The position numbers and the translations under genes were made by a program. Of a stretch of 64,000 nt of DNA, positions 7,646-43,270 are shown piece by piece (positions within the stretch are counted from its first letter, which is position 1; each line of letters begins with the position of its first letter). The notes beneath the pieces were generated by a model. That model made no database searches. It was not told where the DNA came from and saw nothing but the letters and a program-made list of their open reading frames with translations. Source of the stretch: Antedon mediterranea (Eukaryota; Animalia; Echinodermata); the NCBI RefSeq assembly GCF_964355755.1, contig NC_092673.1, positions 20,023,648 to 20,087,647 on the forward strand. The letters are read 5' to 3'.

Positions 7646-10600
7646 TCTTTTTCTTTGTTCTTCTTTCTTTCCACGAATTTTGTTGGTCGCATATCTCTAA
7701 TTCTGGCAAATATAACATTGTATAACTTTGTCATAAGATTGACCTGTAGCTGTAGATGTGCAGCCAAGCTTTTGGACGATTTCGGAGTTGCGCAGCGTAA
7801 GTTACGCGCGATTTTGTGAATTTCAATGATTGATCATAGAATAAAAACTAAAAGTCGTTTTGTATTGAAACTTGGTGAACATTTAAGTCATATAATGCGC
7901 AAACTTTCTATGGATTAAAAATGGCATGTTTCACAAAAAGTTACGCGCGCACGCGCGTTTAAAATTTCAAATTGCGAAAAATCAATATCTAATCAACTTT
8001 CTACGCGTTTCATGTCATTTTGAGCATTTTAAACATTCCCACGCGTGCGCAATTTTTTTACGCGCACGTGCGCACGTAGCGCAAAAACATCATTTTTTTG
8101 CTTGATTTTTGTTTTTCCTGTCTTTTTTAGAAAATTTACCAACTTTCAAACAATTTCGACTTAAAATCACGTCATACGAGCACGTAGAATTGGATAATTT
8201 GCACGCGTTTTTGATGAAAAAGTTAAAAAATTCGTGAAAATTATGCCTTTTTTTAAAAAGTCATAAATTCTAAACTACGTGGTGAACTTTTTTTAAATTA
8301 CATATTCTGGAAGTAGATGAGTTGTAGATATCGAATCATGCATCAATATAGCTAACCGGACATTGTGACGTCATCGTATGGCCACGCAAATATAAAATAT
8401 AGGATTTTTTTCTCTTTCGTCATAGCTCGTCACATTTAATAGAGCGCATCTCCACTTATTTGTATTCCATTTCCCCCCATTTTTTTTATGTTGTCTAGCT
8501 CTATCAATTATCTTTCGGACGATTCACCATTTTCAAAATTGTGATGACGTCATCATGTTCAAAAGCGTCAATAACTTTGGTCACTTATTTTCACCGATTC
8601 TGCACTGTATGTACTACGTATACAGTATATAGCGTATACCGTATATACTCAGACGTGACGAAAAATAGAGAGCACACTGAAATTGTTTCAATGACTTAAT
8701 CGTTTTTCTGCGCGCAATATTTTAACGTAGGACGTGCACGTGGCCTTTGCGCTGCGGATAACCTAACTCGTCCGTAGTGACGAGTTCAAATCTAGTTCTA
8801 TTTTCTTCTTTCTTTCCACGAATTTTGTTGCTAGTGTATCTCTAAATCTTCTTAACATAACATTGTATAACTTTATCAGAAGATTGATCTCTATCTGAAG
8901 ATGTTGTAATAAGGTTTTCGGTCACGTCCGAGTTGCGCAGCGTAAGTTACGCACGATTTTATGAATTTCAATTATTGATCATAGAATAAAAACTAAAAGT
9001 TGTTTTGTATTGAAACTTGGTGAACATTTAAGTCATATAATGCGCAAACTTTCTATGGATTAAAAATGGCAAGTTTCACAAAAACTTACGCGCGCACGCG
9101 CGTTTAAAATTTCAAAATGCGAAAAATCAATATCTAATCAACTTTCTACGCGTTTCATGTCATTTTGAGCATTTCAAAAATTCCCACGCGTGCGCAATTT
9201 TTTTACGCGCACGTGCGCACGTAGCGCAAAAACATCATTTTTTTGCTTGATTTTTGTTTTTCCTGTCTTTTTTAGAAAATTTACCAACTTTCAAACAATT
9301 TCGACTTAAAATCACGTCATACGAGCACGTAGAATTAAACAATTTACGCGCATTTTTGATGAAAAAAGTTCAAAAATTTGTCAAAATTATGCCTTTTTTT
9401 AAACAGTCATAGATTCTAAACTACGTGGTGAACTTTTTTATAATTACATATTCTGGTAATAGATGAGTTGCAGATATCAAATCATGCATCAATATGGCTA
9501 ACCGGACATTGTGACGTCATCGTATGGCCACTCGAATATAAAATATAGGATTTTTGTCTCTTTCCTTGTAGCTTGTCACATTTAATATAGCGCATCTCCA
9601 CTTATTTGTATTCCATTTCCCCCCATTTTTTTATGTTGTCTAGGTCTATCAATTATCTTTCGCACGATTCACCATTTCAAAATTGTGATGACGTCATCAT
9701 GTTCAAAAGCGTCAATAACTTTGGTCACTTATTTTCACCTATTCTGCACTGTATGTAGTACGTATACAGTATATAGTGTATACCGTATATACTCAGACGT
9801 GACGAAAAATAGAGAGCACACTGAAATTGTTTTCAATGACTTAATCGTTTTTCTGCGCGCAATATGTATGACGTGCACGTGGCCTTTGCGCTGCGGATAA
9901 CCTAACTCGTCCGTAGTGACGAGTTCAAATCTAGTACTTCTTTCTTTCTGTCATTTTTGTGCGTCGCGTTTCTCTAAAACGTGTAGACAGAACATATCGT
10001 AACTTTGTCAACATATCGACATTTACGTGAACTTGTGCACCTCCTATTTTTGAATGACGTCAGAGTTGCGCAACGTGACTTACGTGCGATTTTGTGAATT
10101 TCAATGATTGATCATAGACTAAAAACCAAACATAATTTTGTTTTGAAACTTTGTGAAAATTCAAGTCATATCAAGCGCAAACTTTCTATGGATTAAAAAT
10201 AGCATGTTTCACAAAAAGTTACGCGCGCACGCGCGTTTAAAATTTTAACGTAGGAAATATAAACTTCTAATCAACTTTCTATGCGTTTCATGTCATTTTG
10301 AGCATGTCAAAAATTCCCACGCGCGCAAACATTTTTACGCACGCGATGCACACGTAGCGTTAAAAACATATTTTTTTCGCGTGATTTATGTTTTTTCAGC
10401 CTTTTCTAGTAATGTTACCAAATTTTAAACAATTTCGACTTAAAATTACGTCATACGAGCACGTCGAATTAGATAATTTGCACGCGTATTTGGTGAAAAA
10501 GTTCAAAAATTCGTCAAAATTATGCCTATTTTTAAACAGTCATAGATTCTAAACTACATGGAGAACTTTTTTTTAATTACATATTCTGGAAGTTGATGAG

Positions 10601-11534
10601 TTGTAGATATCGGATCATGCATTAATATGGCTAACCGGACATTGTGACGTCATCGTATGGCCACGCGAATATAAAATATAGGATTTTTGTCTCTTTCGTC
10701 ATAGCTCATCACATTTAATAGAGCGCATCTCCACTTATTCGTTGTCCATTTTCATTCCGATTTTAATTTATTCTAGATCTATCAACTATCTTTTGCATGA
10801 ATTAAAAATTTTTAAATTTTTTTAACGTCATCATGCCTAAAAATTTAAATTACATTGGTCATTAATTTCATCTTTACAGTAAATTTTAATCTGTTATAGC
10901 TCGTAAGAATAAAATGTGATAATCACGATTAAAACGTTTTTAGGAAGCTATTGTATAGTAGATACAAAATCATGTAAAATTTTGCCAATCGAATGTTGTG
11001 ACGTTATCATATGGCCAGTTAAATACAAAAAGTCGTATTTTCATCTTTTGCGTTATATTTCATTACATTTAAAAGAGCGCGCATCAATATTTCACGTATT
11101 CCAATTTCTTCTACACGTTAATATGTTGTTGCTGAGATAATTTCATTCTGAAAGTTCTACTTTTGCATTTCATTTTGAAACCGTCAAGATGTTAAAAATT
11201 ACAATAAAATACGGGTCCCGTAATTTCACCTATTTTACACTGTGATATGTTTACAGATTGTACTGTGTATACTATGTATATGACACAAAATAACAGAATT
11301 CAGAAATAACAACATATCATATTCTTCAGTTCAGGTCATAATGCCTTAATATTTTTCTGTGTGCAATATTCTAACGTATGACGTGCACGTGGCGTTTGTC
11401 GAGCGGATAACTAACTCGTCAAAGTGACTAGTTTCATGTCTAGTTAGTTATCCGCTTAGTAGCGGATAACTCCTTGTAATCGTCCTGTTACTTTTTGGTT
11501 ATCCGCCTCAAGCGGATAAGCCTTTGGAATTGTA

Positions 11535-14500
11535 ATTATGTGTACTTAATGCTCGATCCACGCAACGCAAAGCCTCAAGAAAAGGAGTGGAGCAAGTATC
11601 TGGAAATGGTGAGACGAGTACTAAATCCACAGAAAAGCATAGGTCTATAGAAAAAGCACATCTTAATTTTGGCGTTCTAAATGCACGTTCTCTGCGTAAC
11701 AAGTGTGATGAATTTGTGGACTTAGTTGTTAGCTATAATCTAGATGTAGTGGCGGTGTCTGAAACCTGGTTAAGACCAGATGATGATCTTGTGATTGGAG
11801 ATTTAACTCCACTAGGATATCGCTTTGTGCATGTCCCTAGGGTGGACAAAACTGGGGGTGGTGTTGGAATTCTGTCTAAGTCAAGCTTAGTTGTTAACTT
11901 GAAAACGGATGTACATACATATGCATCATTTGAGGCTATACATGTGCATATTACGTCTAACTCGAAATCTCTTCGTTTAGTTAACATATATCGACCACCA
12001 ACCTTGTCTGTTACAGAGTTCCTAAATGATTTTGAAAAAATGCTGTTTGACTTTATTCTCTTTTCGTCTGAAATTGTTTTCTGCGGAGACTTTAATATCC
12101 ATATGGATAATAAAAAAAAAAATGTGGCAGCGGATAGATTTAAAACACTGCTTAGATCGTTTGGTCTCCAGCAGCATATAAATGAACCCACACACTGTAG
12201 TGGGCACTGCCTCGACCTTATCATCACTAGAGATGATCTACTTCTCTCGGATGTAAAGATACACCCTGGCCTGTCAGATCATTTTGCCATATTTTGCAAG
12301 TTTGATCTTAAATGGCCCACAACACACAAAACTGTAAGAAAAAGTCGCAACCTAAAACAAATTGATATTGATAAATTCACAAATGACATTAAAGCCTGTG
12401 TGTCTAATAAAACTGATGTAAGTGTAATTCTTGAAGACAGTGTAGAAAGCTATTCTGATCTCAGAGCTGTACTTGATTTACATGCGCCAGTTCAGAACAA
12501 AACAATTAGGCAAAAGGAAGCTAAACCGTGGTATACCGATGAAATTCGATCTGAAAGGAAAGTACGTCGTCAACTTGAACGTAAATGGATGAAATCAAAG
12601 CTTCCTAAGGATAGACAGGAATACTGTGTTCAAAGATGCGTTGTAAATGGACTGATTGAAAAGGCCAAGACGCGGTATTACTCTAGTCTGGTTAGTGACT
12701 GCACAGGTGATCAAAAGAAACTTTTCAATATAGTAAATAAACTTTTACATCACTCCAAGTCATCGGTCCTTCCTTCGTCTGTCTCCGATGAAGCTCTTGC
12801 TGAAAGATTTTCTGTGTTTTTTGTAAATAAAATTAAATCAATTCGTGATTCACTAGAAAATGAAAATACTGGCGAAGTTATAACTGCTTCTGATAAATGT
12901 AATATATCTTATGGTTTAACTAGGTCTATACGGTTTTCTCAGTTCGAACCTGCAAGTGATGAGGAAATTTTAAAAATTGTCAAAAATTCTCCCTCTAAAT
13001 CATGTGCACTTGACCCGGTACCAACTTCACTGATTAAGAAATGTACTTCTGCATTTATTCCATTAATCACACATATTGTTAATAAGTCTCTTGAAAGTGG
13101 TTCTTTCCCAGAGTCTCTAAAAGTCACCCATGTTCGACCCACATTGAAAAAAACAGGTCTAGATCCCGAGATTCTGAAAAACTACAGACCTATCTCGAAT
13201 CTTAGTTTTTTAGGAAAAATAATTGAGAAGGTTGTTTCTAAACGGATTTTGTCGCATGTACAAAAACATGGCCTACTTGATCCGTATCAATCTGCCTACA
13301 AAGCGCATCACAGTACTGAAACGGCATTACTTCGTGTAAATAATGACATCCTACGTGGGATGGATGATGGAAAGCTAACTGCTCTAGTATTATTAGATTT
13401 AAGTGCAGCATTTGATACGGTTGATCATTCTGTGTTGCTAAATAGACTCAGTACTTATATTGGTATTGAAGGAAATGCACTTGATTGGTGTCGGTCATAT
13501 TTGGAAAAACGACCTCAACACGTATGTATTGGTGATGCTATTTCAAAAGCTTCTTTTCTAAACTTTTCGGTACCACAAGGATCTGTTCTTGGGCCGCAAT
13601 GGTTTACTATTTATTTACATCCGATACGGGATATCATAAGTAAATATGATCTGTGCTATCATGTTTATGCTGATGATACTCAGATTTATATTTCTTTTAA
13701 ACCTACTATGAAACACAGTGACATTTCTTTGGAATTGCTCCAACATTGTATCTATGAATTGCGTGTCTGGTTGAAAAACAACTTTCTTAAATTAAATGAT
13801 GAAAAAACAGAATTTGTTCTCTTTGGATCAAAACAGCAGTTGGAAAAACTGCCACCAAGCTTTATTCACATTGGTGAAACCCAAATTGACCCGGCTAGGC
13901 AGGTTAGAAATCTTGGGGTTGAAATGGATGTGGGTATGACTATGATTTCTCATATCTCAAAAACTATTTCTGCGTCGTCTTTTCACTTGCGAAACATTCG
14001 AAAGATTCGTAAGTTTATAAATGAGACAGCAGCTAAACAACTTGTTCATGCTTTTGTCACTTCACGACTAGATATGGGAAACTCTTTGCTATACGGGCTA
14101 CCACAAAAACAACTCCACAGGCTCCAACTGATTCAAAATACAGCGGCACGAGTTGTTAAAAAATTACCAAGATATGGACACATATCAAATACTTTGGAAA
14201 TATTGCATTGGCTCCCTGTTAGGTACCGCATTGTTTTTAAAATATTACTCTTTGTTTTTAAGTCTATAAATGGCATGGCTCCTGAATATATTTCTGACAT
14301 GCTTAGGCTGTATGTTCCCGGACGTAATCTGCGCTCTAGTGACTCGCTGCTTCTACATCAGCCTAAGTCTCACCACTCATGGGGTGACAGAGCATTCTCC
14401 GTTACTGCTCCTCGTCTGTGGAATGCTCTACCGAGCTCTATAAGATTTTGCAAAACTGTTGATACTTTTAAAAAATTATTAAAAACACATTTATTCATTA

Positions 14501-14845
14501 AGGCATATGGAAATCATGAGGTTTCTTAAAGTTGTTTAGACTTAGAATTGTTTTGTATACCTTTTCCTGGCCAGCATTCTCTTTGGGGTGCCTCTGTCTT
14601 GGTTGTTGTCTCTGAGCACCCGGTCGTCTGTGGCAAGGCAAATGTGTATCCTGCTCCTTTGTTTGGTCACCTAGGTAGGGGTCCGGGACCACGACAGAAT
14701 GACAACGGATGGGGACCCTCCAAAGAAATTGCATTTTATTTGCCAGGAATTTGTATGATTTATTTCTTTTTTATTTTTAAATGCGCCTTGAGCACTCTGG
14801 AGTGGTATGTGCGCTATAAAAATCTTATTATTATTATTATTATTA
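11535..14845 (+). mobile_element. L2-clade (CR1 group) LINE, 5'-truncated, with uninterrupted ORF2 and (TTA)n tail
   Basis: ORF2 motifs as in the next feature. L2-type 3' end GCGCCTTGAG...GCGCTATAAAAAT followed by (TTA)n at 14825-14845. It interrupts a Helitron head at GAATTGTA|GTGTT; the intact version GAATTGTAGTGTT is at 14889-14901. Confidence 0.92.
11587..14529 (+). CDS. LINE ORF2: AP endonuclease + reverse transcriptase (980 aa open frame)
   Basis: APE motifs LNARS, SETW, GDFNIH, SDH. RT motifs YRPISNL, LDLSAAFD, VPQGSVLGP, YADD. L2-type C-terminus TSRLD..LQLIQNTAAR..LHWLPV. The listed start is GTG; the frame is open from 11536 and has no ATG before the endonuclease. Confidence 0.95.
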   Translation: MEQVSGNGETSTKSTEKHRSIEKAHLNFGVLNARSLRNKCDEFVDLVVSYNLDVVAVSETWLRPDDDLVIGDLTPLGYRFVHVPRVDKTGGGVGILSKSSLVVNLKTDVHTYASFEAIHVHITSNSKSLRLVNIYRPPTLSVTEFLNDFEKMLFDFILFSSEIVFCGDFNIHMDNKKKNVAADRFKTLLRSFGLQQHINEPTHCSGHCLDLIITRDDLLLSDVKIHPGLSDHFAIFCKFDLKWPTTHKTVRKSRNLKQIDIDKFTNDIKACVSNKTDVSVILEDSVESYSDLRAVLDLHAPVQNKTIRQKEAKPWYTDEIRSERKVRRQLERKWMKSKLPKDRQEYCVQRCVVNGLIEKAKTRYYSSLVSDCTGDQKKLFNIVNKLLHHSKSSVLPSSVSDEALAERFSVFFVNKIKSIRDSLENENTGEVITASDKCNISYGLTRSIRFSQFEPASDEEILKIVKNSPSKSCALDPVPTSLIKKCTSAFIPLITHIVNKSLESGSFPESLKVTHVRPTLKKTGLDPEILKNYRPISNLSFLGKIIEKVVSKRILSHVQKHGLLDPYQSAYKAHHSTETALLRVNNDILRGMDDGKLTALVLLDLSAAFDTVDHSVLLNRLSTYIGIEGNALDWCRSYLEKRPQHVCIGDAISKASFLNFSVPQGSVLGPQWFTIYLHPIRDIISKYDLCYHVYADDTQIYISFKPTMKHSDISLELLQHCIYELRVWLKNNFLKLNDEKTEFVLFGSKQQLEKLPPSFIHIGETQIDPARQVRNLGVEMDVGMTMISHISKTISASSFHLRNIRKIRKFINETAAKQLVHAFVTSRLDMGNSLLYGLPQKQLHRLQLIQNTAARVVKKLPRYGHISNTLEILHWLPVRYRIVFKILLFVFKSINGMAPEYISDMLRLYVPGRNLRSSDSLLLHQPKSHHSWGDRAFSVTAPRLWNALPSSIRFCKTVDTFKKLLKTHLFIKAYGNHEVS

Positions 14846-14855
14846 GTGTTACTTT

Positions 14856-16137
14856 TTGGTTATCCGCCTCAAGGCGGATAAGCTCTTAGAATTGTAGTGT
14901 TTCTTTTTTTTATTATTCTTCCATATTTCCGCCACTTTTTGTGTTCAACTTTTCTCTGCAACGTGTTAACATAACATGTTGTAACTTTGTAAACATTTCG
15001 ACATTTAACTGAAGTTGTGCAGCGAAGCTTTTGGACGCTGTCAGATCCGCGTAGCGTAAGTTACGCGCGAATTTCTGAAAATCTTAAGTTGATCATAACT
15101 TCGAAACAAATATATATTTTTTAACGTAATTTCCAGCCACGTTTGCTTCACATCAATTTCTAACTTTTTCATCGTTACCGACATTTGTAACATTGGAAAG
15201 TGCGCGCGTAAACGGCTTTTGAAATTTTAAAATGCTCCAAATCAATTTCTGATTAAATTAGAGCACGATTCAGGTCATTTTAAGGGTTTGAAAAATTGCC
15301 ACCAGGTGCGCACATTTGAGCATTTCTTTTGCACGAGTTGTGTTTTTCAATCTTCGGTTAACAATTTTACGTTATTTTAATCACTATTCAACTTGAAATG
15401 ACGTTCTACGAGCACGTTAAACATGACTGGTTGCGCACGTAAAATGTTGAAAAAATTTGAAAATGTTGCAAAATATGTATACTTTTAAAAATGATACAGT
15501 TCATCAGAATGCAAGGTTACCCCCATTTTTTATTTTATTTTCTTGCAGTGTACGAATCATAGGTCTGATTTATTATAGTGTCGAATGTTAAAAGGTGTTT
15601 GGTGGCTACATTATTTGCATATTAAATATAATTTTTGAAATTTTTATCATCAAACAAACATAAACATTTTCAAAGAGCAAAATAATAAACATAACGTTTA
15701 TCTTTTTTCTTCACATGGTAATATATAAAACTTAAAAGTATGCACTTTCATAATATGTCACTGTTTAAAATTTGTGAAGATTTCTTCATAGCAAAAATTA
15801 TGATTTAGTTTGATAAGTAATAATCTATTTGCATCGAGTGGTTCACGACATACCGAATGGACGAGTAAACTTTCGTCGGATTTTCTTCAGCAGGTGCTCA
15901 TATGGCTCGATGTGTAGTGCCACCGACTTTGGTATCAGAGGTACCGGGATCGAGTCCCGTCACGGGAAAACAATTTAATAAAAGGATTTATTTGGTTGTT
16001 ACACTGAAAAGGCAGTTTTAATTTCGAATTGGCTACTTTTTGGAAAAGCCATAACTGAAAAGTACTTGAATGCGCAAGATACGTTTTGTGGCGGGCGGAT
16101 AACCAAACTCGTCCTCAAGTGACGAGTTCAGATCTAG
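14856..16137 (+). mobile_element. Helitron2-type element, 'C' subfamily, nested in a sister C element (head 11495, body 16138-17388)
   Basis: Two C heads (loop CTCAA[G]) are followed by two C bodies ending GCGGGCGGATAACCAAACTCGTCCTCAAGTGACGAGTT..GATCTAG. Confidence 0.8.
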
Positions 16138-17143
16138 TTTTTTATTATTCTTCTCTATTTCCGCCGATTTTTGTGTTCAGCTTTTCTCTGCAACCTGGTA
16201 TCATAACATTTTGTAACTTGGTAAACATTTAGACATTTAGCTGAAGATGTGCAGCCAAGCTTTTGGACGCTGTCAGAGCCGCGTAGCGTAAGTTACGCGC
16301 GATTTTCAGAAAATCCTAAGTTGATCATAACTTCAAAACAGATGAATATTTTTTAACGTCATTTTCAGCCACGTTTGCTTCACATCAATTGCTAACTTTT
16401 TTATCGCTACCGACATTTGTAACATTGAAAAGTGCGCGAGTAAACGGCGTTTGAAATTTTAAAATGCTCCAAATCAATTTCTGATTAAATTAGAGCACGA
16501 TTCAGTTCATTTTAAGCGTTTGAAAAATTGCCACCAGGTGCGCACATTTTTACGCGCGCACGGTGCAGGAAACACGTATGAGCATTTCTTTTGCACGATT
16601 TGTGTTTTTCAATCTTCGGTTAACAATTTCACGTTATTTTATTCACTTTTCAACTTCAAATGGCGTTCTACGAGCACGTTAAACATGACTGGTTGAGCAC
16701 GTAAAATGTTAAAAAATTGTCAAAATGTTGAAAAATATGTATACTTTTAAAAATGATACAGTTCATCAGAATGCAAGGTTACCCCTATTTTTTATTTTAT
16801 TTTCTTGCAGTGTATGAATCATAGGTCTGATTTATTATAGTGTTGAATGTTAAAACGTGTTTGATGGCTACATTATTTGCATATTAAATATATATCATCA
16901 AACAAACATAAACTTATTCAAAGAGCAAAACAATAAACATAACATTTATCTTTTTTCTTTACATGTTAATATATAAAACTTGAAAGTATGTACTTTCATA
17001 AAATATCAGCGTTTAAAATTTTTGAAGATTTCATCATAGTAAAATTTATGATTTAAGTTTGATATGTAATAATCAACTTGCATCGAGGGGGTTCACGACA
17101 TACCGAATGAACGAGGACTCTTTCTTCGGATTTTCGTCAGCAG

Positions 17144-17216
17144 GTGGTCATATGGCTCGATGTGTAATGCAACCGACTTTGGTATCAGAGGTACCGGGTT
17201 CGAATCCCATCACGGG
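17144..17216 (+). other. tRNA-derived (SINE-head-like) segment inside C-subfamily elements; copies at ~15893-15966 and ~37879-37951
   Basis: A-box-like TGGCTCGATGTG, anticodon-loop-like CTTTGGTA, then AGAGGTACCGGGTTCGAATCCC (T-arm/B box). The acceptor stem is not intact, so it is not a tRNA gene. Confidence 0.6.
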
Positions 17217-19016
17217 AAAACAATTAAATAAAAGGATTTGTTTGGTTATTACACTGAAAAGGCAGTTTTAATTTCGAATAGGCTACTTTTTGGAAAAGTC
17301 ACAACTGAAAAGTACTTGAATACGCAAGATACGTTTTGTTGCGGGCGGATAACCAAACTCGTCCTCAAGTGACGAGTTTAAGATCTAGTTTTTTAGTTAT
17401 CCGCTTAGTAGCGGATAACTCCTTGTAATCGTCCTGGATCTTTTTTTTTTTTTTCTTTATTAGTTATCCGCTTAGTAGCGGATAACTCCTTGTAACTGTA
17501 TGAAATCATCTTTTTTTTTTTTTTTTTCTGTATTATTAGTTATCCGCTTAGTAGCGGATAACTCCTTGTAATCGTCCTGGATCTTTTTTTTTTTTTTCTT
17601 TATATTATTCTTCTTTCTTTCTCCTCCATTTTTGTGTCTCGCGTATCTCAAAAACTTGTACACATAACATTTCATAACTTTGTCATCATATGGACATTTA
17701 CGTGAAGTTGTGCACCTCCTATTTTTTAATGACGTCAGAGTTGCGCAACGTGACTTACGCGCGATTTTATGAATTTCATTGATTGATCATAGGATAAAAA
17801 ATAAAAGTCATTTTGTATTGACACTTGGTGAATATTTAAGTCATATCAAGGGCAAACTTTCTATGGATTAAAAATGGCATGTTTTACAAGAAGTTACGTG
17901 CACACGCGCATTTCTCCTCCATTTTTGTGTCTCGCGTATCTCAAAAACGTGTAAATATAACATTTCATAACTTTGTCAACATATGGGCATTCACGTGAAG
18001 TTGTGCACCTCCTATTGTGAATGACCTCAGAAATGCGCAACGTGACTTACGCGCGATTTTATGAATTTCGCGTATTTAACATAGATTGAAAACCATATAA
18101 CAATTTAAATTGAAACTTAGCAAAAGTTTTAATTTATATCTTGCGCTAACTTTTTGTGCACTAAAAATGGCATGTTTTACACGAAGTTACGCGCGCACGC
18201 GCATTTAAAATTTAAAATGCGCAAAATTAATTTCTAATCAACTTTCTACGCTGATCATGACATTTTGAGCATGTCAAAAATTCCCACGCGCGCGAACAAT
18301 CTTACGCGCGTGGTCCGCATGTAGCGCTAAAAACATCTTTTTTGCGTGAATTATGTTTTTTCAGCCTTTTATAGTAATTTTATCAACTTTTAAAACAATT
18401 TAGACTTAAAATTACGTCATACGAGCACGTCGAATTGTACAATTTGTGCGTGTTTTTAATGAAAAAATTAAAAAATTCGTCAAAATTATGCCTTTTTTTA
18501 AACAATCATAGATTCTAAACTACGAGGTAAACTTTTTTTTACTTACATATTCTGGAAGGTGATGAGTTGTAGATATCGGATCATTAATCAATATGGTTAA
18601 CCGGACATTGTGACGTCATCGTATGGCCACACGAATGTAAAATATATGATTTTTGTCTCTTTCGTTATTGCTCCTCACATTAAATGGAGCGCATCACCAA
18701 TATCTGTATTCCTTTTTCTCCGAGATTTTAATATTGTCTAGGTCAATCAACTATCTTAAGCATGTGTTAAAAATATTTAATTTTTATGACATCATCATGC
18801 CTAAAAATTTAAATTAGGTGTATACAGATTATACTGTGTACTTTAAAATGTATATACTATGACACAAAATAGACAGAATTTAGTACTAACAACATATCAT
18901 ATTCTTCAGTTCAGGTCATAATGCCATAATCTTTTTCTGTGTGCAACATTCCAACGTATGACGTGCACGTGGCGTTTGTCGAGCGGATAACTAACTCGTC
19001 AAAGTGACGAGTTTCA

Positions 19017-20628
19017 TTAGTTATCCGCTTAGTAGCGGATAACTCCTTGTAACTGTATGAAATCATCTTTTTTTTTTTTTTTTTTTTCTGTATTATTCTT
19101 TCTTTCTGTCAATTTTGTGTCTCGCGTATCTCAAAAACTTGTAAACAAAACATTTTATAAGTTTGTCAACATGTGGGCATTCACGTGAAATTGTGCACCT
19201 CCTATTGTGAATGACGTCAGAATTGCGCAACGTGATTTACGCGCGTTTTAACGAATTTCGCGTATATAACATAGATCGAAAACCATATAGCAATTTAAAT
19301 TGAAACTTAACAAAAGTTTAAATTATATCTTGCGCTAACTGACTGTGGAAAAAAAATGGCATGTTTCACAAGAAGTTACGCGCGCACGGGCGTATAAAAT
19401 TTCAAAATGCGAAAAATCAATTTCTAATCAACTTTCTACGCGTTTCATGTCATTTTGAGCATGTCAAAAATTCCCACGCGCGCGCATATTTTTACTCGCA
19501 CGGTGCGCACGTAGCGTTGAAAATAAATTTTTTTCGCGTGATTCATGTTTTTCCAGCCTTTTCTGGTAATTTTACCAACTTTTGAACAATTTTGACCTAA
19601 AATTACGTCATACGGGCACATCCAATTGGATAATTTACGTGCGTTTTTGATGAAAAAGTTCAAAAATTTGTCAAAATTCGTCAAAATTATGCCTTTTTTT
19701 AAACATTCATAGATTCTAAACTACGAGGTGAACTTTTTTAAAATTATATATTCTGGAAGTTGATGAGTTGTAGATATGGAATCATGCATTAATATGGCTA
19801 ATCGGACATTATAACGTCATCGTATGGCCACGCGAATATAAAATATAGGATTTTTATATCTTTCGTCATAGCGCATCACATTTAGTAGAGCGCATCTCCA
19901 CTTATCCGTTTTTTATTTTCACCCCGATTTTGATATTGTCTAGGTGAATGAACTATCTTTCGCATGAGTTAAAAATATTTTAATTTTTATGACGTCATCA
20001 TGTCGAAAATTGTAAATAACGTGGGTAACTTATTTTCATCTTTACAGTAAATTTCAATCTGTTATAGCTCATCAGAATAAAAAGTGATAATCATGATTAA
20101 AACGTTTTCTGGAAGCTATGGGATTTTAGATACGAATTCATGTAAACATTTTGCCAATCGGATGTTGTGACGTCATCATATGGCCAGTTGAATAAAAAAA
20201 GTTGTATTTTCATATTTTGCGTAATAGTTCATCACATTTAAAAGGGTGCGCATCTATATTTTACGTATTCAAATTTCTTCTACACGATAATATGTTGTTC
20301 CTAAGATAATTTCCTTCTGAAATTGCTATCTTAAGTGTTTCATTTTGATACCGTCGCCATGTTAAAAATTGGAATAAATGGCGGGTCCCGTAATTTCACC
20401 TATTCTACACTGTATGTAATATGTATACAGATTATACTGTAGTGTTTGCATGTATACTATATGACACAAAATTGACAGAATTCAGCACTAACAGCATATC
20501 ATATTCTTCAGTTCTTGTCATAATGCCATAATCTTTATCTGTGTGCAATATTCCAACGTATGACGTGCACGTGGCGTTTGTCGTGGTGCGGATAACTAAC
20601 TCGTCAAAGTGACGAGTTTCATGTCTAG
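19017..20628 (+). mobile_element. Complete Helitron2-type element ('D' subfamily) inserted into the 3' terminus of another element
   Basis: Host terminus GACGAGTTTCA|TGTCTAG is split between 19016 and 20629-20635. The insert runs TTAGTTATCCGC...TCTAG, with no TSD. Confidence 0.92.
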
Positions 20629-23600
20629 TGTCTAGTTCTTTCTTTCTGTCAATTTTGTGTCTCGCGTATCTCAAAAACTTGTAAACAAAACATTTTATAA
20701 CTTTGTCAACATGTGGGCATTCACGTGAAATTGTGCACCTCCTATTGTGAATGACGTCAGAATTGCGCAACGTGATTTACGCGCGTTTTAACGAATTTCG
20801 CGTATTTAACATAGATCGAAAACCATATAGCAATTTAAATTGAAACTTAACAAAAGTTTAATTTATATCTTGCGCTAACTGACTGTGGAAAAAAAATGGC
20901 ATGTTTCACAAGAAGTTACGCGCGCACGGGCGTTTAAAATTTCAAAATGCGAAAAATCAATTTCTAATCAACTTTCTACGCGTTTCATGTCATTTTGAGC
21001 ATGTCAAAAATTCCCACGCGCGCGCATATTTTTACTCGCACGGTGCGCACGTAGCGTTGAAAATCAATTTTTTTCGCGTGATTCATGTTTTTCCAGCCTT
21101 TTCTGGTAATTTTACCAACTTTTGAACAATTTTGACATAAAATTACATCATACGGGCACATCCAATTGGATAATTTACGTGCGTTTTTGATGAAAAAGTT
21201 CAAAAATTTGTCAAAATTCGTCAAAATTATGCCTTTTTTTAAACATTCATAGATTCTAAACTACGAGGTGAACTTTTTTTAAATTATATATTCTGGAAGT
21301 TGATGAGTTGTAGATATGGAATCATGCATTAATATGGCTAATCGGACATTATAACGTCATCGTATGGCCACGCGAATATAAAATATAGGATTTTTATATC
21401 TTTCGTCATAGCGCATCACATTTAATAGAGCGCATCTCCACTTATCCGTTTTTTATTTTCACCCCGATTTTGATATTGTCTAGGTGAATGAACTATCTTT
21501 CGCATGAGTTAAAAATATTTTAATTTTTATGACGTCATCATGTCGAAAATTGTAAATAACGTGGGTCACTTATTTTCATCTTTACAGTAAATTTCAATCT
21601 GTTATAGCTCATCAGAATAAAAAGTGATAATCATGATTAAAACGTTTTCTGGAAGCTATGGGATTGTAGATACGAATTCATGTAAACATTTTGCCAATCG
21701 GATGTTGTAACGTCATCATATGGCCAGTTGAATAAAAAAAGTTGTATTTTCATATTTTGCGTAATAGTTCATCACATTTAAAAGGGTGCGCATCTATATT
21801 TTACGTATTCAAATTTCTTCTACACGTTAATATGTTGTTCCTAAGATAATTTCCTTCTGAAATTGCTATCTAAGTGTTTCATTTTGATACCGTCGCCATG
21901 TTAAAAATTGGAATAAATGGCGGGTCCCGTAATTTCACCTTTTCTACACTTTATGTAATATGTATGCAGATTATACTGTAGTGTTTGCATGTATACTATA
22001 TGACACAAAATTGACAGAATTCAGCACTAACAGCATATCATATTCTTCAGTTCTTGTCATAATGCCATAATCTTTATCTGTGTGCAATATTCCAACGTAT
22101 GACGTGCACGTGGCGTTTGTCGTGGTGCGGATAACTAACTCGTCAAAGTGACGAGTTTCATGTCTAGTATTATTCTTCTTTCTTTCTCCTCCATTTTTGT
22201 GTCTCGCAAATCTCAAAAACTTGTACACATAACATTTCATAACTTTGTCATCATATGGACATTTACGTGAAGTTGTGCACCTCCTATTTTTTAATGACGT
22301 CAGAGTTGCGCAACGTGACTTACGCACGATTTTATGAATTTCATTGACTAATCATAGGATAAAAAATAAAAGTCATTTTGTATAGACACTTGGTGAATAT
22401 TTAAGTCATATCAAGGGCAAACTTTCTATGGATTAAAAATGGCATGTTTTACAAGAAGTTACGTGCACACGCGCATTTCTCCTCCATTTTTGTGTCTCGC
22501 GTATCTCAAAAACGTGTAAATATAACATTTCATAACTTTGTCAACATATGGGCATTCACGTGAAGTTGTGCACCTCCTATTGTGAATGACCTCAGAAATG
22601 CGCAACGTGACTTACGCGCGATTTTATGAATTTCGTGTATTTAACATAGATTGAAAACCATATAACAATTTAAATTGAAACTTAGCAAAAGTTTAATTTA
22701 TATCTTGCGCTAACTTTTTGTGCACTAAAAATGGCATGTTTTACACGAAGTTACGCGCGCACGCGCATTTAAAATTTAAAATGCGCAAAATTAATTTCTA
22801 ATCAACTTTTTACGCTGATCATGACATTTTGAGCATGTCAAAAATTCCCACGCGCGCGAACAATCTTACGCTCGTGGTCCGCACGTAGCGCTAAAAACAT
22901 CTTTTTTGCGTGAATTATGTTTTTTCAGCCTTTTATAGTAATTTTATCAACTTTTAAAACAATTTATACTTAAAATTACGTCATACGAGCATGTCGAATT
23001 GTACAATTTGTGCGTGTTTTTAATGAAAAAATTCAAAAATTCGTCAAAATTATGCCTTTTTTAAAACAATCATAGATTCTAAACTACGAGGTAAACTTTT
23101 TTTTACTTACATATTCTGGAAGGTGATGAGTTGTAGAAATCGGATCATTAATCAATATGGTTAACCGGACATTGTGACGTCATCGTATGGCCACACGAAT
23201 GTAAAATATATGATTTTTGTCTCTTTCGTTATTGCTCCTCACATTAAATGGAGCGCATCACCGTTATCTGTATTCCTTTTTCTCCGAGATTTTAATAATG
23301 TCTAGGTCAATCAACTATCTTATGCATGTGTTAAAAATATTTAATTTTTATGACATCATCAGGCCTAAAAATTTAAATTAGGTGTATACAGATTATACTG
23401 TGTACTTTAAAATGTATATACTATATGACACAAAATAGACAGAATTTAGCACTAACAACATATCATATTCTTCAGTTCAGGTCATAATGCCATAATCTTT
23501 ATCTGTGTGCAACATTCCAACGTATAACGTGCACGTGGCGTTTGTCGAGCGGATAACTAACTCGTCAAAGTGACGAGTTTCATGTCTAGTACTTCTTTCT

Positions 23601-26600
23601 TTCTGTCATTTTTGTGCGTCGCGTTTCTCTAAAACGTGTAAACAGAACATATCGTAACTTTGTCAACATATCGACATTTACGTGAACTTGTGCACCTCCT
23701 ATTTTTGAATGACGTCAGAGTTGCGCAACGTGACTTACGTGCGATTTTATGAATTTCAATGATTGATCATAGACTAAAAACCAAACATAATTTTGTTTTG
23801 AAAGTTTGTGAACATTTAAGTCATATCAAGCGCAAACTTTCTATGGATTAAAAATAGCATGTTTCACAAAAAGTTACGCACGCACGCGCGTTTAAAATTT
23901 TAACGTGCGAATTATCAACTTCTAATCAACTTTCTATGCGTTTCATGTCATTTTGAGCATGTCAAAAATTCCCACGCGCGCGAACATTTTTACGCACGCG
24001 GTGCACACGTAGCGTTCAAAACATATTTTTTTCGCGTGATTTATGTTTTTTCAGCCTTTTCTAGTAATGTTACCAAATTTTAAACAATTTCGACTTAAAA
24101 TTACGTCATACGAGCACGTCGAATTAGATAATTTGCACGCGTATTTGGTGAAAAAGTTCAAAAATTCGTCAAAATTATGCCTATTTTTAAACAGTCATAG
24201 ATTCTAAACTACATGGAGAACTTTTTTTTAATTACATATTCTGGAAGTTGATGAGTTGTAGATATCGGATCATGCATTAATATGGCTAACCGGACTTTGT
24301 GACGTCATCGTATGGCCACGCGAATATAAAATATTGGATTTTTGTCTATTTCGTCATAGCTCATCACATTTAATAGAGCGCATCTCCACTTATTCGTTGT
24401 CCATTTTCATTCCGATTTTAATATATTCTAGATCTATCAACTATCTTTTGCATGAATTAAAAATTTTTTAATTTTTTTAACGTCATCATGCCTAAAAATT
24501 TAAATTACGTTGGTCATTAATTTCATCTTTACAGTAAATTTTAATCTGTTATGCCTCGTAAGAATAAAATGTGATAATCACAATTAAAACGTTTTCAGGA
24601 AGCTATTGTATTGTAGATACAAAATCATGTGTAAATTGTGCCAATCGAATGTTGTGACGTCATCATATGGCCAGTTAAATAAAAAAAGTCGTATTTTTAT
24701 CTTTTGCATTATATTTCATTACATTTAAAAGAGCGCGCATCAATATTTCACGTATTCAAATTTCTTCTACACGTTAATACGTTGTTGCTGAGATAATTTC
24801 ATTCAGAAATTTCTACTTTTACATTTCATTTTGAAACCGTCAAGATGTTAAAAATTACAATAAAATACGGGTCCCGTAATTTCACCTATTTTACACTGTT
24901 TGTGATATGTATACAGATTGTACTGTGTATACTATATGACACAAAATAACAGAATTCAGAAATAACAACATATCATATTCTTCAGTTCAGGTCATAATGC
25001 CTTAATATTTTTCTGTGTGCAATATTCTAACGTATGACGTGCACGTGGCGTTTGTCGAGCGGATAACTAACTCGTCAAAGTGACGAGTTTCATGTCTAGT
25101 TCTTATTTCTTTCTCCCCCATTTTTGTGTCTCACGTATCTCAAAAACTTGTAAACATAACATTTCATAACTTTGTCAACATATGGGCATATACGTGAAGT
25201 TGTGCACCTCCTATTTTTGAATGACGTCAGAGTTGCGCAACGTGACTTACGCGCGATTTTATGATTTGTTATGATTGACCATAGATTAAAAACCAAGCGT
25301 AATTTTGTTTTGACACTTTGTGAAAATTTAAGTCATATCAAATGCAAATATTCTATGGATTAAAAATGGCATTTTTTACAAGAAGTTACGCGCGCACGCG
25401 CATTTAAAATTTCAAAATGCGCAAAATTAATTTCTAATCAACTTTCTACGCTGATCATGACATTTTGAGCATGTCAAAAATTCCCACGCGCGCGAAAAAA
25501 TTTACGCGTAAGGGGCGCATGGAGTATGAAAACCATGTTTTTTTTCTTGAATTTTGAGTGTCCAGCCTTTCGTAGTCATTTTAAACAAGATTGACATCAT
25601 TTCAAGTTAAAATGACGTCATACGTACACGTTGATTTAGACCATTTGCATGCGTTTTAGTTGCAAAAGTGACAAAATATTGTCAAAATTATGCCTATTTT
25701 GAATCTATTATAGCTCGTCAGGATCAAAGGTGACCCCAATTTGTTTTAACTTATTATGCAAGAAGATAAATTGTAGATATAAATTCATGCAGATTTTTTT
25801 CCTCTCCGAAGTTATGACGTCATCGTATGGCCACACGAATGTAAAATATAGGATTTTTGTCTCTTTCGTTATTGCTCATCACTTTCAATAGAGCGCATCT
25901 CGGTTATCCGTATTCCATTTCCTCCGATATTTAATATTATCTAGGTCAATCAATTATCTTTCCATGAGTAAAAAATATTTTAATTTTTATGACGTCATTA
26001 TGTCTAAAAATGTAAAGCATATTATCACGTATTTTCATCTTTACAGTAAGTTTCAATCTGTTATAGCTCGTCAGAATAATAAGTGATAATCATGATAAAA
26101 ACGTTTTCTGGAAGCTATTGGACTGTATATACGAATTCATATAAACAGTTTGCCAATCAGGTGTTGTGACGTCATCATATGGCCAGTTGAATAAAAAAAG
26201 ACGTATTTTCATATTTTGCGTAATAGTTCATCACATTTAAAAGGGTGCGCATCTATATTTTACGTATTCAAATTTCTTCTACACGTTAATATGTTGTTCC
26301 TGAGATTATTTCCTTCTGAAATTGTTATCTAAGTGTTTCATTTTGATACCGTCGCCATGTTAAAAATTGGAATAAATGGCGGGTCCCGTAATTTCACCTA
26401 TTCTACACTGTATGTAATATGTATACAGATTATACTGTTTGCATGTACCGTATATACTATATGACACAAAATTGACAGAATTCAGCACTAACAGCATATC
26501 ATATTCTTCAGTTCTTGTCATAATTCCATAATCTTTATCTGTGTGCAATATTCCAACTTATGACGTGCACGTGGCGTTTGTCGTGGTGCGGATAACTAAC

Positions 26601-29600
26601 TCGTCAATGTGACGAGTTTCATGTCTAGTTCTTCTTTCTTTCCCGGATTTTCGTGACCAGCATATCTCTATTGCAAAATGCGCAAAATTCATTTCTAATC
26701 AATTTTCTACGCGTTTCATGTCATTTTGAGCATTTCAAAAATTCCCACGGGTGCGCAATATTTTTACGCGCGCGTGCGCACGTAGCGCAAAAACATGTTT
26801 TTTTGGCTTGATTTTTGTTTTTTCAGCCTTCTCTAGTAACTTTACCAACTTTCAAACAATTTCGACTTAAAATCACGTCATACGAGCACGTAGAATTAAA
26901 CAATTGACGCGCATTTTTGATGAAAAAGTTCAAAAATTTGTCAAAATTATGCCTTTTTTTAAACAGTCATAGATTCTAAACTACGTGGTGAACTTTTTTA
27001 AAATTACAAATTCTGGAAGTTGATGAGTTGTAGATATCGAATCATGCATCAATATAGCTAACTGGACATTGTGACGTCATCGTATGGCCACTCAAATATA
27101 AAATATAGGATTTTTGTCTCTTTCGCATAGCTCATCACATTTAATAGAGCGCATCTCCACTTATCCGTATTCCATTGCCCTCCATTTCTTTATATTGTCT
27201 AGGTCAATCAATTATCTTTCGCATGATTTACCATTTTTTAAATTGTGATGACGTCATCATGTCCAAAAGCGTCAATAACTTGGGTCCCTTATTTTTACCT
27301 ATTCTGCACTGTATGTAGTACGTATACAGAATATAGTGTATACCGTATATACTCAGACGTGACACAAAATAGAGAGCGCACTAACATTTTTTCAATGGCA
27401 TAATCGTTTTTCTGCGCGCAATATTCTAACGTATGACGTGCTGCGGATAACCTAACTCGTCCGTAGTGACGAGTTCAAATCTAGTTTTTCTATGTTCTTC
27501 TTTCTTTCTACGATTTTTGTTCGCAGCGTATCTCTAATTCTGGCCAACATGTGATTGTATAACTTTGTCAAAAGATTGCTCTGTAGCTGTAGATGTGCAA
27601 GAAACTTTTTTTTTTTAATTTTGAGTCGCGCAGCGTAAGTTACGCGCGATTTTATGAATTTCAATGATTGATCATAGATTAAAAACCAAAAGTCATTTTC
27701 TATTGAAACTTGGTGAAAATTTAAATTATATCATGCGCAAACTTTGTATGGATTAAAAATGGCATGTTTCACAAAAAGTTACGCGCGCACGCGCGTTTAA
27801 AATTTCAAAATGTGAAAAATCAATTTCTAATCAACTTTCTACGCGTTTCATGTCATTTTGAGCATTTCAAAAATTCCCACGCTTGCGCAATTTTTTTACG
27901 CGCGCGTGCGCACATAGCGCAAAAACATCATTTTTTTGTTTGATTTTTGTTTTTCCTGTCTTTTTTAGTAAATTTACCAATTTTCAATCAATTTCGACTT
28001 AAAATCACGTCATACGAGCATGTAGAATTAAACAATTTGCGCGCATTTTTGATGAAAAAGTTAAAAAATTTGTCAAAATTATGCCTTTTTTTAAACAGTC
28101 ATAGATTCTAAACTACGTGGTGAACTTTTTTATAATTACATATTCTTGTAGTAGATGAGTTGCAGATATCAAATCCTGCATCAATATGGCTAACCGGACA
28201 TTGTGACGTCATCGTATGGCCACTCGAATATAAAATATAGGATTTTTGTCTCTTTCCTCGTAGCTCGTCACATTTAATAGAGCGCATCTCCACTTATCCG
28301 TATTCCATTTCCTCCCATTTTGTTATATTGTCTAGGCCAATCAATTATCTTTTGCATGATCTACCATTTTTTAAATTGTGATGACGTCATCATGTCCAAA
28401 AGCGTCAATAACTTGGGTCCCTTATTTTCACCTATTCTGCACTGTATGTAGTACGTATACAGAATATAGCGTATACCGTATATACTTTGACACGACGCAA
28501 AATTGAGAGCGCACTAACATTATTTCAATGGCGTAATCGTATTTCTGCGCGCAATATTCTAACGTATGACGTGCACGTGGCATTTGCGCTGCGGATAACC
28601 TAACTCGTCCGTAGTGACGAGTTCAAATCTAGTCTGTATTATTCTTCTTTCCTTCCGTCATTTTTGTGCTTCGCGTTTCTCTAAAACGTGTAAACAGAAC
28701 ATATCGTAACTTTGTCAACATATCGACATTTACGTGAACTTGTGCACCTCCTATTTTTGAATGACGTCAGAGTTGCGCAACGTGACGTACGCGCGATTTT
28801 ATGAATTTCAATGATTGATCATAGACTAAAAACCAAACATAATTTTGTTTTGACACTTTGTGAAAATTTAAGTCATATCAAGCGCAAACTTTCTATGGAT
28901 TAAAAATAGCATGTTTCACAAAAAGTTACGCGCGTACGTGCGTTTAAAATTTTAGGATGCGAAAAATCAACTTCTAATCAACTTTCTATGCGTTTCATGT
29001 CATTTTGAGCATGTCAAAAATTCCCACGCGCGCGAAAATTTTTACGCACGCGGTGCACACGTAGCGTTAAAAACATATTTTTTTCGCGTGATTTATGTTT
29101 TTTCAGCCTTTTCTAGTAATGTTACCAACTTTTAAACAATTTCGACTTAAAATTACGTCATACGAGCACGTCGAATTACATAATTTGCACGCGTTTTTGG
29201 TGAAAAAGTTCAAAAATTTGTCAAAATTATGCCTATTTTTAAACAGTCATAGATTCTAAACTACATGGAGAACTTTTTTTAAATTACATGTTCTGGAAGT
29301 TGATGAGTTGTAGATATCGGATCATGCATTAATATGGGTAACCGGACATTGTGACGTCATCGTATGGCCACGCGAATATAAAATATAGGATTTTTGTCTC
29401 TTTCGTCATAGCTCATCACATTTAATAGAGCGCATCTCCACTTATTCGTTGTCTATTTTCACCCCGATTTTAATATATTCTAGGTCAATCAACTATCTTT
29501 TGCATGAATTAAAATTTTTTTAATTTTTTTAACGTCATCATGCCTAAAAATTTAAATTACGTTGGTCATTAATTTCATCTTTACAGTAAATTTTAATCTG

Positions 29601-31795: not shown

Positions 31796-31849
31796 TTGGT
31801 TATCCGCACTTGGCGGATAACCTCTTGTTATTGTCAGGATCTTTTTTTA

Positions 31850-31893
31850 TTGGTTATCCGCACTTGGCGGATAACCCCTTGTTATTGTCAGGA

Positions 31894-31924
<31 letters not shown>

Positions 31925-43213: not shown

Positions 43214-43270
43214 GTCTGTTGAGAAGGAACGTTAAAAGTTCTTGTGTGTTTCGTGTCAAAATGGTGTATA

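Follow-up and report, generated by a model that had tools for sequence, protein, structure and literature searches.

Non-autonomous elements of the Helitron2/Helentron type (HINE, DINE-1, Cg_HINE; HLE2) have been described previously (PMC3627910, PMC4067079, PMC2374699, PMC7492417, PMC11417382; here and below, statements refer to the accessible parts of the cited texts), and their definition includes an inverted repeat of 8-15 bp placed 0-2 bp from the 5' end (PMC3627910). In the Fusarium element FoHeli1, short 5' ends (31-85 nt) are repeated in stacks, which was explained by self-insertion near the 5' end (PMC5148889, PMC13342296), and one copy with five 5' termini was attributed to the same process (PMC13342296). 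Maize Helitrons prefer to insert near or inside other Helitrons, and their multiple termini result from nesting (PMC3288121). Other described arrangements are (i) tandem Helitron arrays produced via rolling-circle replication in a plant centromere (as cited in PMC5148889 and PMC5876387) and (ii) Helitrons of Paramecium that occupy a single strand of the telomeric repeats (PMC13085455). Little is known of target choice by Helitron-type transposases past two to five bases; the literature searched contained no assay of Helitron2 integration.

General features of the array

In this study, a window of 64,000 nucleotides (the whole stretch analyzed) of the echinoderm Antedon mediterranea (NC_092673.1, 20,023,648-20,087,647) was investigated. 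Its positions 2592-38122 (+ strand) are occupied by a 35.5-kb array of non-coding Helitron2-type elements, with 13 heads (5' ends) and 24 tails (3' ends), all of them on the + strand. Element DNA constitutes 91% of the array and the remainder is one LINE. The elements are small, protein-less, uniformly oriented and fall into about eight subfamilies. A sequence-only reading of this DNA had placed a nested system at 11444-25099; the nesting is real, but the true array is bigger. Once the LINE was set aside, the array contained no stop-to-stop frame of at least 150 aa, and an Rfam search of the sequence gave no match. The exact head palindrome occurs 10 times, compared with 0 in 100 shuffles. As a side observation, the X4 contigs show a depth of ~150-300 and the flank ~925, where depth does not equal copy number.

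Termini and classification of the elements

The elements are non-coding copies which, judging from their termini, carry Helitron2/Helentron (HINE-type) ends. This assignment, proposed in the sequence-only reading, was borne out in all 13 heads by the inverted repeat and the hairpins. A 12-bp inverted repeat begins at position 1 of every head and, compared with its 3' copy, shows no mismatches in 8 cases and 1-2 mismatches in 5. It takes part in a predicted 5' DNA hairpin in 13/13 heads (-9.2 to -15.7 kcal/mol). The 3' inverted repeat, expected in HINEs at about 20-30 bp from the end, begins a terminal segment in which it is 29-32 nt away from that end and immediately followed by a predicted hairpin with a stem of 8-10 bp (-6.6 to -10.1 kcal/mol), again in all 13 elements. 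The elements start with TT, and all 24 tails end with CTAG (one of them split by an insertion). The TT start and the 5' hairpin in 13/13 heads differ from canonical Helitron1 (TC, no 5' hairpin), whereas the canonical 3' traits (hairpin and CTRR end) are present, with CTAG on 24/24 tails.

The reported lack of target-site duplication also held, apart from a single T that may be duplicated: the leaders (i.e. the T-rich segments behind the 5' hairpins) of A1 and B1 are restored base for base save for T-run length. A T follows each of the 24 tails on the 3' side of the junction. As to insertion strictly between two T, a site is preceded by T in 7 of the 13 cases, by A in 4 and by G in 2 if the ends are defined as TT...CTAG, and the boundary may shift by one base. 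Pattern scans of metagenome contigs, viral contigs and prokaryote genomes for a partner gave neither a match nor a transposase. HINEs are expected to share their termini with an autonomous Rep-helicase element of the HLE2 clade; in Helentrons proper, this partner has an apurinic endonuclease domain.

Dissection of the stack at 11444-25099

The best resolved part of the array is a stack on the + strand reaching five levels. It opens with the head of element D (level 1; 11444-11494), comprising the TT start, the 12-bp terminal inverted repeat, the hairpin and the beginning of the leader, and adjoining the tail of a sister D body. The head of C1 (level 2; 11495-11534) sits in the T run of D and is interrupted by a 5'-truncated, 3.3-kb LINE (11535-14845) with endonuclease and reverse transcriptase, an open frame at 11536-14529 and an ATT-repeat tail; read contigs extend 414-832 letters further upstream of 11534. 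The remainder of the C1 head with the first three T of its leader (14846-14855) is followed by the intact C2 (level 3; 14856-16137), placed in the T run of C1, and by the body and tail of C1 (16138-17388). Four T of the D leader (17389-17392) separate guest C1 from guest A1. Then come the head of A1 with the beginning of its leader (level 2; 17393-17459), the same parts of B1 (level 3; 17460-17535), A2 from its head up to its split tail (level 4; 17536-19016), carrying a 293-bp internal duplication typical of subfamily A, the intact B2 (level 5; 19017-20628), the final 7 nt of the A2 tail (20629-20635) and, in reverse order, the bodies with tails of B1 (20636-22167), A1 (22168-23589) and D (23590-25099).

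This confirms the heads earlier recognized at 17393, 17460 and 17536, with their leaders, and the bodies ending at 20635, 22167 and 23589; excision of 17536-20635 and of 17460-22167 yielded the predicted junctions. Rebuilt A1 is identical to intact A2 over the first 107 nt (98.45% overall), and rebuilt B1 differs from intact B2 within the first 140 nt only by three T in a run (99.0% overall). Two further pairings had been proposed. The C heads at 11495 and 14856 do pair with C bodies (ending at 17388 and 16137, respectively), but the LINE, not mentioned earlier, also has to be removed, after which C1 and C2 share 92.7% identity. The joining of the D head at 11444 with the body at 23590-25099 agrees with the bracket order and with a perfect 12-bp terminal inverted repeat, but the window holds no intact D copy for comparison. 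The claimed fifth level exists (19017-20628), but B2 lies in the tail of A2 rather than in a leader; it sits 34 nt past the 3' inverted repeat, with only the last 7 nt of 17536-20635 behind it.

Across the array, last-in-first-out pairing matched all 13 heads to 13 of the 24 tails and left none open. The excisions rebuilt A, B, C and E elements matching intact copies, and swapped head/body pairings produced hybrid elements. Every testable open head received a body of its own subfamily (5/5, P=1.6e-4); random pairing equalled the result in 310 of 2,000,000 shuffles. Moreover, the base at position 3 of the 5' repeat, either A or G, agrees with the class of the 3' repeat in 13/13 pairs. The idea that the two C heads represent a target-site duplication of the LINE was rejected: the heads differ at 4 of ~50 positions, the bodies likewise by 7%, and the LINE is young, with an open frame. 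The 9 nt preceding both C heads are identical, which was taken as a coincidence.

Other parts of the array and traces of recombination

All remaining parts also lie on the + strand. At the left edge there are two headless E-like bodies (2592-4817), the first cut inside its 5' part; in other copies, found in read contigs, a T-rich leader precedes the base equivalent to 2593. The intact E1 (4826-6043) and G (6052-7645) are neighbours, both within the leader of the body that follows, and three headless bodies (E, E, D; 7646-11443) come next, each beginning in leader sequence. Behind the resolved stack there is a headless body H (25100-26628) with a 41-nt stub of an otherwise lost body (up to 26669), and then a segment (26670-28632) duplicating 33390-35352 with 7 differences in 1963 nt (99.6%), because of which 2 of the 24 tails are not independent. 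A headless D' body (28633-30151) precedes a second resolved stack (30158-35352) with E2 outermost. The guests of E2 are F (30207-31795) and E3 (31796-34204), the latter itself holding E4 (31850-33066). The array closes with a headless D' body (35353-36871) and the outermost body (36872-38122), an E/C chimera directly followed by T-rich unique DNA.

The 99.6% duplicate, the truncated stub, the E/C chimera and the cut left end show that recombination shaped the array too. Eleven of the 24 tails lack a head. Most of these heads would have been lost in a single deletion at the left edge; the 2-kb duplicate would stem from later recombination, as would the chimera at the end of the array. At the left edge, among the matches listed, no contig bridges 2591/2592 and none has a loose end there, with two of four runs uncovered at 2400-2503, which is uninformative either way. 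Contigs of one public sample (possibly the source of the window) contain joints of E tail to E leader with 3, 4, 5, 6 and 8 T, and 4 of these 5 forms are absent from the window. A contig joint of head to head (11496 to 11444) was dropped as a sign of a D head stacked elsewhere, as the A stack of the window can yield it at 90% likeness. Another joint (9935 to 11372; E tail, then tail-proximal sequence) is a weak observation.

Distribution of insertion sites

The 21 independent insertions inside the array all share one strand; leaders hold 20 of them and a tail holds the other one. Of the 9 with a visible host head, 8 are in the leader. The single tail-located insertion used a T-poor site (8 T in 20). 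A landing pad ~40-80 bp behind the hairpin had been proposed in the sequence-only reading. The elements do carry their own leader, but the sites lie 49-76 nt from the 5' end of the host, i.e. ~20-50 nt past the hairpin. In all 13 elements, the leader provides the 30-mer with the highest pyrimidine content, which reaches 27/30 in 10 of them, whereas no 30-mer with 27/30 pyrimidines was found in the 28.5-kb flanks, both strands scanned.

This concentration far exceeds what follows from the TTTT^T/C target rule of the literature: leaders hold 23% of TTTT^Y sites, and 8/9 insertions there gives P=5.3e-5. When bases in T runs of at least 7 are considered, 42% are in leaders, compared with 20/21 insertions (P=3.9e-7). 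With T runs of at least 8, 70% of the sites are already in leaders and the excess is modest (P=0.006), and leaders hold 133 of the 143 windows with at least 16 T in 20. A generic long-T rule may therefore be enough to explain the sites. Since the outermost tail adjoins one of only three + strand 20-mers with at least 16 T in the right flank, the founder chose T-rich, non-leader DNA. In a branching model, a cluster of 21 has P ~1e-6 per founder if half of the copies are nested, and therefore the pad alone may not explain the size of the array.

Two candidate causes of targeting found no support: body windows melt more easily than the leader in 9/13 elements (nearest-neighbour values), and the insertions, at 32-58 nt from the resident repeat motif, do not keep to the constant 41-44 nt seen in the tail. 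CTnn^T is present at 3 of 7 distinct visible-host leader sites compared with 7% expected (P=0.011, with the opening bases of the T run as a confounding factor), which is only suggestive of a target that might mimic the circle junction. Guest and host share the repeat class in 8/9 visible-host cases; this was not taken as a homology search, because temporal bursts of activity would produce such a pattern too.

Origin of the array

We favour, as the probable explanation, that new copies land on one strand and almost only in the T/C-rich leader behind the 5' hairpin of an earlier copy, likely because a Rep-helicase transposase supplied from elsewhere prefers a long pyrimidine tract. By analogy with Helraiser (a Helitron1), the top strand would be copied into a circle and joined at a nick 5' of a T, which would explain the fixed orientation and the lack of duplication. 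Every insertion would add a fresh leader and therefore heads would accumulate on the left and bodies on the right; growth of the locus would then be autocatalytic, as suggested earlier. The sequence-only reading also opposed independent insertions to concatemers. The intact guests are not identical to the split copy nearby; independent arrival is supported for A2 and B2, which are intact although their sole same-subfamily neighbour was already split at landing. In this respect the reading was supported, but recombination contributed as well.

An alternative of rather low probability is tethered targeting, in which a transposase on the resident inverted-repeat motif integrates the circle 32-58 nt downstream on the same strand and the leader merely supplies T. 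Consistent with it, 13/13 insertions with a visible left flank sit at this distance past a motif copy, the sole non-leader insertion lies 34 nt past the tail's motif copy (a zone of 0.45% of non-leader T sites), duplex stability fails to single out the leader, and 4 of the 6 head-arm cases free of ambiguity are 32-37 nt away, in a window that holds 16% of sites (P=0.008) and was picked post hoc. However, distance and leader are confounded in 12/13 cases, the distances disagree with the spacing in the tail, the founder sits in unique T-rich DNA, and C2 may postdate the LINE, which put its site 3.3 kb from the motif. A bolder version, in which transposases bound to the terminal inverted-repeat motif aim at resident relatives and integrate into a pyrimidine pad located 32-58 nt downstream and maintained by the elements to this end, is likewise of rather low probability. 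It is rather unlikely that there is no special pad and that an ordinary preference for long T runs acted in a region tolerating or attracting insertions. A T-rich target is an established trait of HINEs, DINE-1 and Cg_HINE, leaders hold most long T runs and T-rich windows (see above), the LINE landed here also, the flanks contain other repeats, and the window was selected on account of the array. Nevertheless, several sites are off the T run (A^T within the TTC segment, and one in a tail), the founding insertion is the only one in the 28.5-kb flanks despite their 19 T runs of at least 8, and the branching estimate requires a high nested share.

Less probable still is that the headless bodies are not due to one deletion, being 5'-truncated or end-bypass composites, concatemers, or copies whose hairpin heads were lost singly via T-run slippage. 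5'-truncated Helitron2 copies and one-ended transposition have been described (PMC3627910), composites from nested Helitrons were proposed in maize and Fusarium, and two sister D bodies, 97.5% alike, have their starting base in common (9935-11443, 23590-25099), the tail of the first adjoining the head of the second like a circle junction. Random truncation, on the other hand, would start 8/8 bodies within the 40-nt leader with a probability of about 1e-12, only 2/24 tails adjoin a head (one across subfamilies), and neighbouring units are 70-99% alike, not identical; the 13 paired elements are left untouched in any case. Satellite-like amplification through unequal crossing-over, or an assembly artefact, is highly improbable. 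The 2-kb duplicate (99.6%) and the chimeric last body speak for it, but copies within 11444-25099 differ by 1-7% with scattered substitutions, the order of heads and bodies has bracket structure and no period, and the family is abundant in independently assembled contigs of public runs. Near-identical units with one fixed junction are not seen; subfamilies are mixed and joints varied.

Since ~22 insertions can be ordered by nesting, the locus provides direct target data and the sequence of subfamily activity (seven insertions entered element D while it diverged by at most 2.5% from its sister), as well as a concrete test of the pad alone against the pad plus motif. If targeting at resident relatives were true, self-nesting would be a built-in safe-harbour strategy, turning dispersed elements into polarised arrays of tens of kb in many animal genomes. 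It would constitute a route from transposon to satellite-like DNA needing neither concatemers nor unequal crossing-over. Such arrays are liable to be annotated as satellites or truncated copies, and stacked heads will break tools that pair left with right ends.

Comparison with known Helitrons

The Antedon elements resemble HINE, DINE-1 and Cg_HINE in having asymmetric terminal inverted repeats, hairpins at both ends, a T start, a T-rich target, no target duplication, no coding capacity and a boundary ambiguous by one T. They differ in their ends (5' TT and 3' CTAG), which PMC11417382 assigns to proto-Helentron, and in the central satellite array, which was not seen in them. Self-nesting of HINE, DINE-1 or Cg_HINE elements is unreported in the accessible parts of those papers, and the word "nested" occurs 0 times in those of PMC7492417 and PMC2374699.

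Maize Helitrons share with the Antedon array the nested intermediates and the insertion near relatives, but they are canonical Helitron1 elements with decayed internal 3' ends and, as described, have no fixed landing zone and no ordered array. Tandem Helitron arrays are similarly long and unidirectional, with 3' ends outnumbering 5' ends; the Antedon units, in contrast, represent mixed subfamilies and are joined at varied leader positions, direct tail-head joints being confined to the two noted above. Paramecium Helitrons also have a strand-specific, pyrimidine-rich target, proposed to fix orientation, but they insert into a repeat of the host, are autonomous and belong to another clade.

FoHeli1 is likewise of Helitron2 type, with stacked 5' ends arising from self-insertion. 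However, it has several heads per 3' end and moves as a composite, whereas in Antedon the heads pair one by one with bodies of their own, following the bracket order (0/13 heads unpaired). The Antedon array comprises about eight subfamilies with a pyrimidine-tract landing zone, and the accessible parts of the texts on FoHeli1 describe no built-in pad. The suggestion that nesting five levels deep had not been described does not stand, as five 5' termini of FoHeli1 are already in print (PMC13342296), though no matched bodies are shown there. An equally dissectable nested array of 35 kb was not found in the literature searched. Self-insertion is known for the Helitron2 class, and what the Antedon locus adds is a cleanly dissectable array.

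Structure of the nested array

A scan of both strands placed 13 heads (element 5' ends with a hairpin) and 24 tails (3' ends closing in CTAG) between positions 2592 and 38122, every one on the + strand; two of the heads, which have longer loops, came from a simple list of motif hits. Ten exact copies of the head palindrome are present, versus 0 in 100 shuffles. In a stack parse all 13 heads were paired, none was left open and 11 tails had no head. Re-inspection confirmed the heads that the sequence-only reading had reported as stacked (17393, 17460 and 17536) and their closing tails (20635, 22167 and 23589). Its last-in-first-out order also holds: every head pairs, and excision rebuilds intact-like elements. 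Between 11444 and 25099 the structure is D[C1[LINE, C2], A1[B1[A2[B2]]]], where letters denote subfamilies, numbers denote copies and brackets enclose guests, i.e. elements that landed inside a host element. A second stack, E2[F, E3[E4]], was parsed at 30158-35352 (+ strand).

Excision was expected to restore the consensus and did so: after removal of the inner elements, A1 is 98.45% identical to the intact A2 and B1 is 99.0% identical to the intact B2. The rebuilt leaders (T/C-rich tracts behind the hairpin) are restored base for base, T-run length excepted, and swapped head/body pairs gave hybrids. The bracket proposed for the C heads and bodies needs one amendment, as C1 is restored, but only when a LINE is removed too (boundaries used: 11535-14845, of which the left end matches public contigs). 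The pairing of head 11444 with body 23590-25099 (subfamily D) is based on three signs, namely the bracket order, matching repeat classes and an unbroken T run; all D copies in the window are incomplete or split. Each of the five open heads with an intact reference is closed by a body of the matching subfamily, which occurred by chance in 310 of 2,000,000 trials drawing from 17 unattached bodies, and in 13/13 pairs the repeats at the 5' and 3' ends are of one class, starting with TTAG or TTGG. The nested array is confirmed as an observation, and its first interpretation is partly supported.

Eight bodies begin inside the ~40-nt leader (chance by random truncation, ~1e-12), and the first body is cut within its 5' part at 2592, where other copies show T-rich leader. 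A single deletion of the left head stack would be the simplest account of the headless bodies, and under it the array would reach a depth of nine or ten levels.

Landing sites

The base after the tail is T in all 24 cases. For the landing-site count, tails 27484 and 28632 were left out as part of a 99.6% duplicate of 33390-35352, and tail 38122, which adjoins unique DNA, was set aside. Twenty of the remaining 21 tails run into leader sequence, or into a head itself sitting in a leader; the other (B2) splits a tail 7 nt short of its end. Where the host head is visible (n=9), eight insertions lie at host positions 49-76 and one in the tail. None of these nine lies in the bodies (~1.2-1.5 kb), which carry ~18 T runs of at least 5 per element (both strands).

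The leader provides 3.8% of N^T sites (insertion 5' of T) and 23% of sites under the published Helitron2 rule, TTTT^Y (Y = T/C). With the latter, 8/9 in the leader gives P=5.3e-5, and the 20/21 excess falls as the rule lengthens (P=3.9e-7 at T runs of 7, 0.006 at 8). The most pyrimidine-rich 30-mer is the leader in 13/13 elements (26-30 pyrimidines), the maximum being 25 in bodies and, on the opposite strand, 21; 10/13 leaders reach 27/30, as does no window in the 28.5 kb flank, where 10 sites reach 25/30. The least stable duplex is not the leader in 9/13 elements. On these figures, a long top-strand T or pyrimidine tract suffices to describe the target, and the elements do carry a rare good example of such a tract.

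The base before the insertion site (11444-38122) may vary with repeat class, being mostly A/G for TTAG-start guests and mostly T for TTGG-start guests (Fisher P=0.088 for visible sites, 0.008 when six inferred sites are added).

Matching sequence was present in seven public runs, four of them from one sample and with ~60% of the words; five were compared, as contigs only. Comparison of one run with 8797-14815 gave, among the matches listed, E tails joined to E leaders through 3, 4, 5, 6 or 8 T, with depths ranging from 500 to 2641, contig depth not being copy number. Only the 5-T form is in the window, and therefore leader insertion happens at other places in that sample, which may itself be the window's source. 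Another run, from a second organism, contains members of this element family that are 90-99% alike to those of the window, together with an almost complete copy of the LINE at 11535-14845 (~94%); the family thus spans more than one species label.

Growth of the array

Growth by independent insertions, as initially proposed, accounts for part of the array, and traces of recombination are present too. A1 was already split by B1 when A2 entered B1, and B1 was already split when B2 entered A2; A2 and B2 are nonetheless intact, and therefore must have originated elsewhere or on the other chromosome. The nested C pair and the nested E pair are a mere 92-93% alike. For Helraiser, PMC4778049 describes local hopping as absent.

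The recombination traces are a 2-kb duplicate, a 41-nt stub, an E/C chimera and the cut left edge. The duplicated stretch (26670-30151 versus 33390-36871) comprises two E bodies, 99.6% identical (7 differences), followed by a D' body at 98.3% (26 differences); given this difference in identity, the replication template probably switched from one D' copy to another, so that the guests of one were copied onto the other. The last body (36872-38122), the chimera, resembles E for 290 nt from its start (92.9% to E2) and C from there on (92.8% to C1). D and its sister at 9935-11443 (97.5% alike, tail directly joined to head) could be a dimer.

PMC4778049 and PMC5876387 describe Helraiser as nicking the top strand at the 5' end, displacing it and circularising it at the 3' end, after which the circle joins a single-stranded target. 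In the array, start, end and target are each cut 5' of T, which would fit such chemistry and a fixed orientation, were it carried over to Helitron2.

As to targeting, we prefer, with reasonable though incomplete confidence, the reading in which the leader acts as a landing pad. In a branching estimate, the probability that a founder gives rise to a cluster of 21 is 1e-6 when 50% of copies are nested and 3e-4 when 67% are, so the pad would yield such clusters readily only with most copies nested, and a further factor is plausible. The main candidate, itself rather unlikely, is tethering of targeting to the repeat motif: 13/13 visible sites sit 32-58 nt behind a motif copy, but in 12 of these pad and tether are confounded, and the distance window was picked after the fact. 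The lone tail insertion lies 34 nt behind a motif copy, as 0.45% of non-leader sites do.

Other features of the window

The LINE at 11535-14845 is young and 5'-truncated, has an open 997-aa frame and may be of L2/CR1 type. In public contigs the full element extends further 5' and depth rises ~40-fold at the 3' end, as would be expected if truncated copies are numerous or if a short partner element exists. A ~600-bp element with long inverted repeats lies at 1305-1910; one run has a contig skipping 1310-1910, so an empty site exists, as allele or paralogue. Two elements of foldback type, whose inverted arms are several hundred bases long (40506-42837, with a 141-bp repeat within one arm, and 43252-45715), are followed by a tandem duplication (46830-49844; 1.35-kb unit, ~2.2 copies, 99% identical). 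The - strand carries a reverse-transcriptase fragment from a second LINE (62730-63626) and gene exons that encode repeated MAM domains (51181-55830; Pfam PF00629), by which the host is recognisable as an animal.

Comparison with known Helitrons

The array elements (1.2-1.6 kb; ~8 subfamilies, 50-99% alike) contained no coding frame of 150 aa and gave no match in an Rfam comparison; an autonomous partner did not turn up in four pattern scans of metagenome, viral and prokaryote collections. For FoHeli, whose 5' ends of 31-85 nt are repeated (three copies in a Metarhizium case), PMC5148889 proposes that elements insert into themselves close to the 5' end; five 5' termini on a single element (PMC13342296), a Xenopus HLE2 with two left ends (PMC11417382) and nested maize Helitrons (PMC3288121) are also on record. 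The comparison further covered PMC13085455, PMC13286980, PMC7492417 and PMC2374699. No bracket-ordered multi-subfamily array or carried landing tract was found in the main texts of the open-access literature searched. Self-nesting of Helitron2 is already known, and the array is a variant of it without precedent in the literature searched.

Its elements act like self-nesting non-autonomous Helitron2, with which all structural tests run agreed. A 12-bp inverted repeat lies at element position 1, within the hairpin, and recurs 29-32 nt before the 3' terminus, ahead of a second hairpin and the terminal CTAG. This anatomy at both ends is the one described for Helitron2 in PMC3627910 and for HINEs in PMC4067079.
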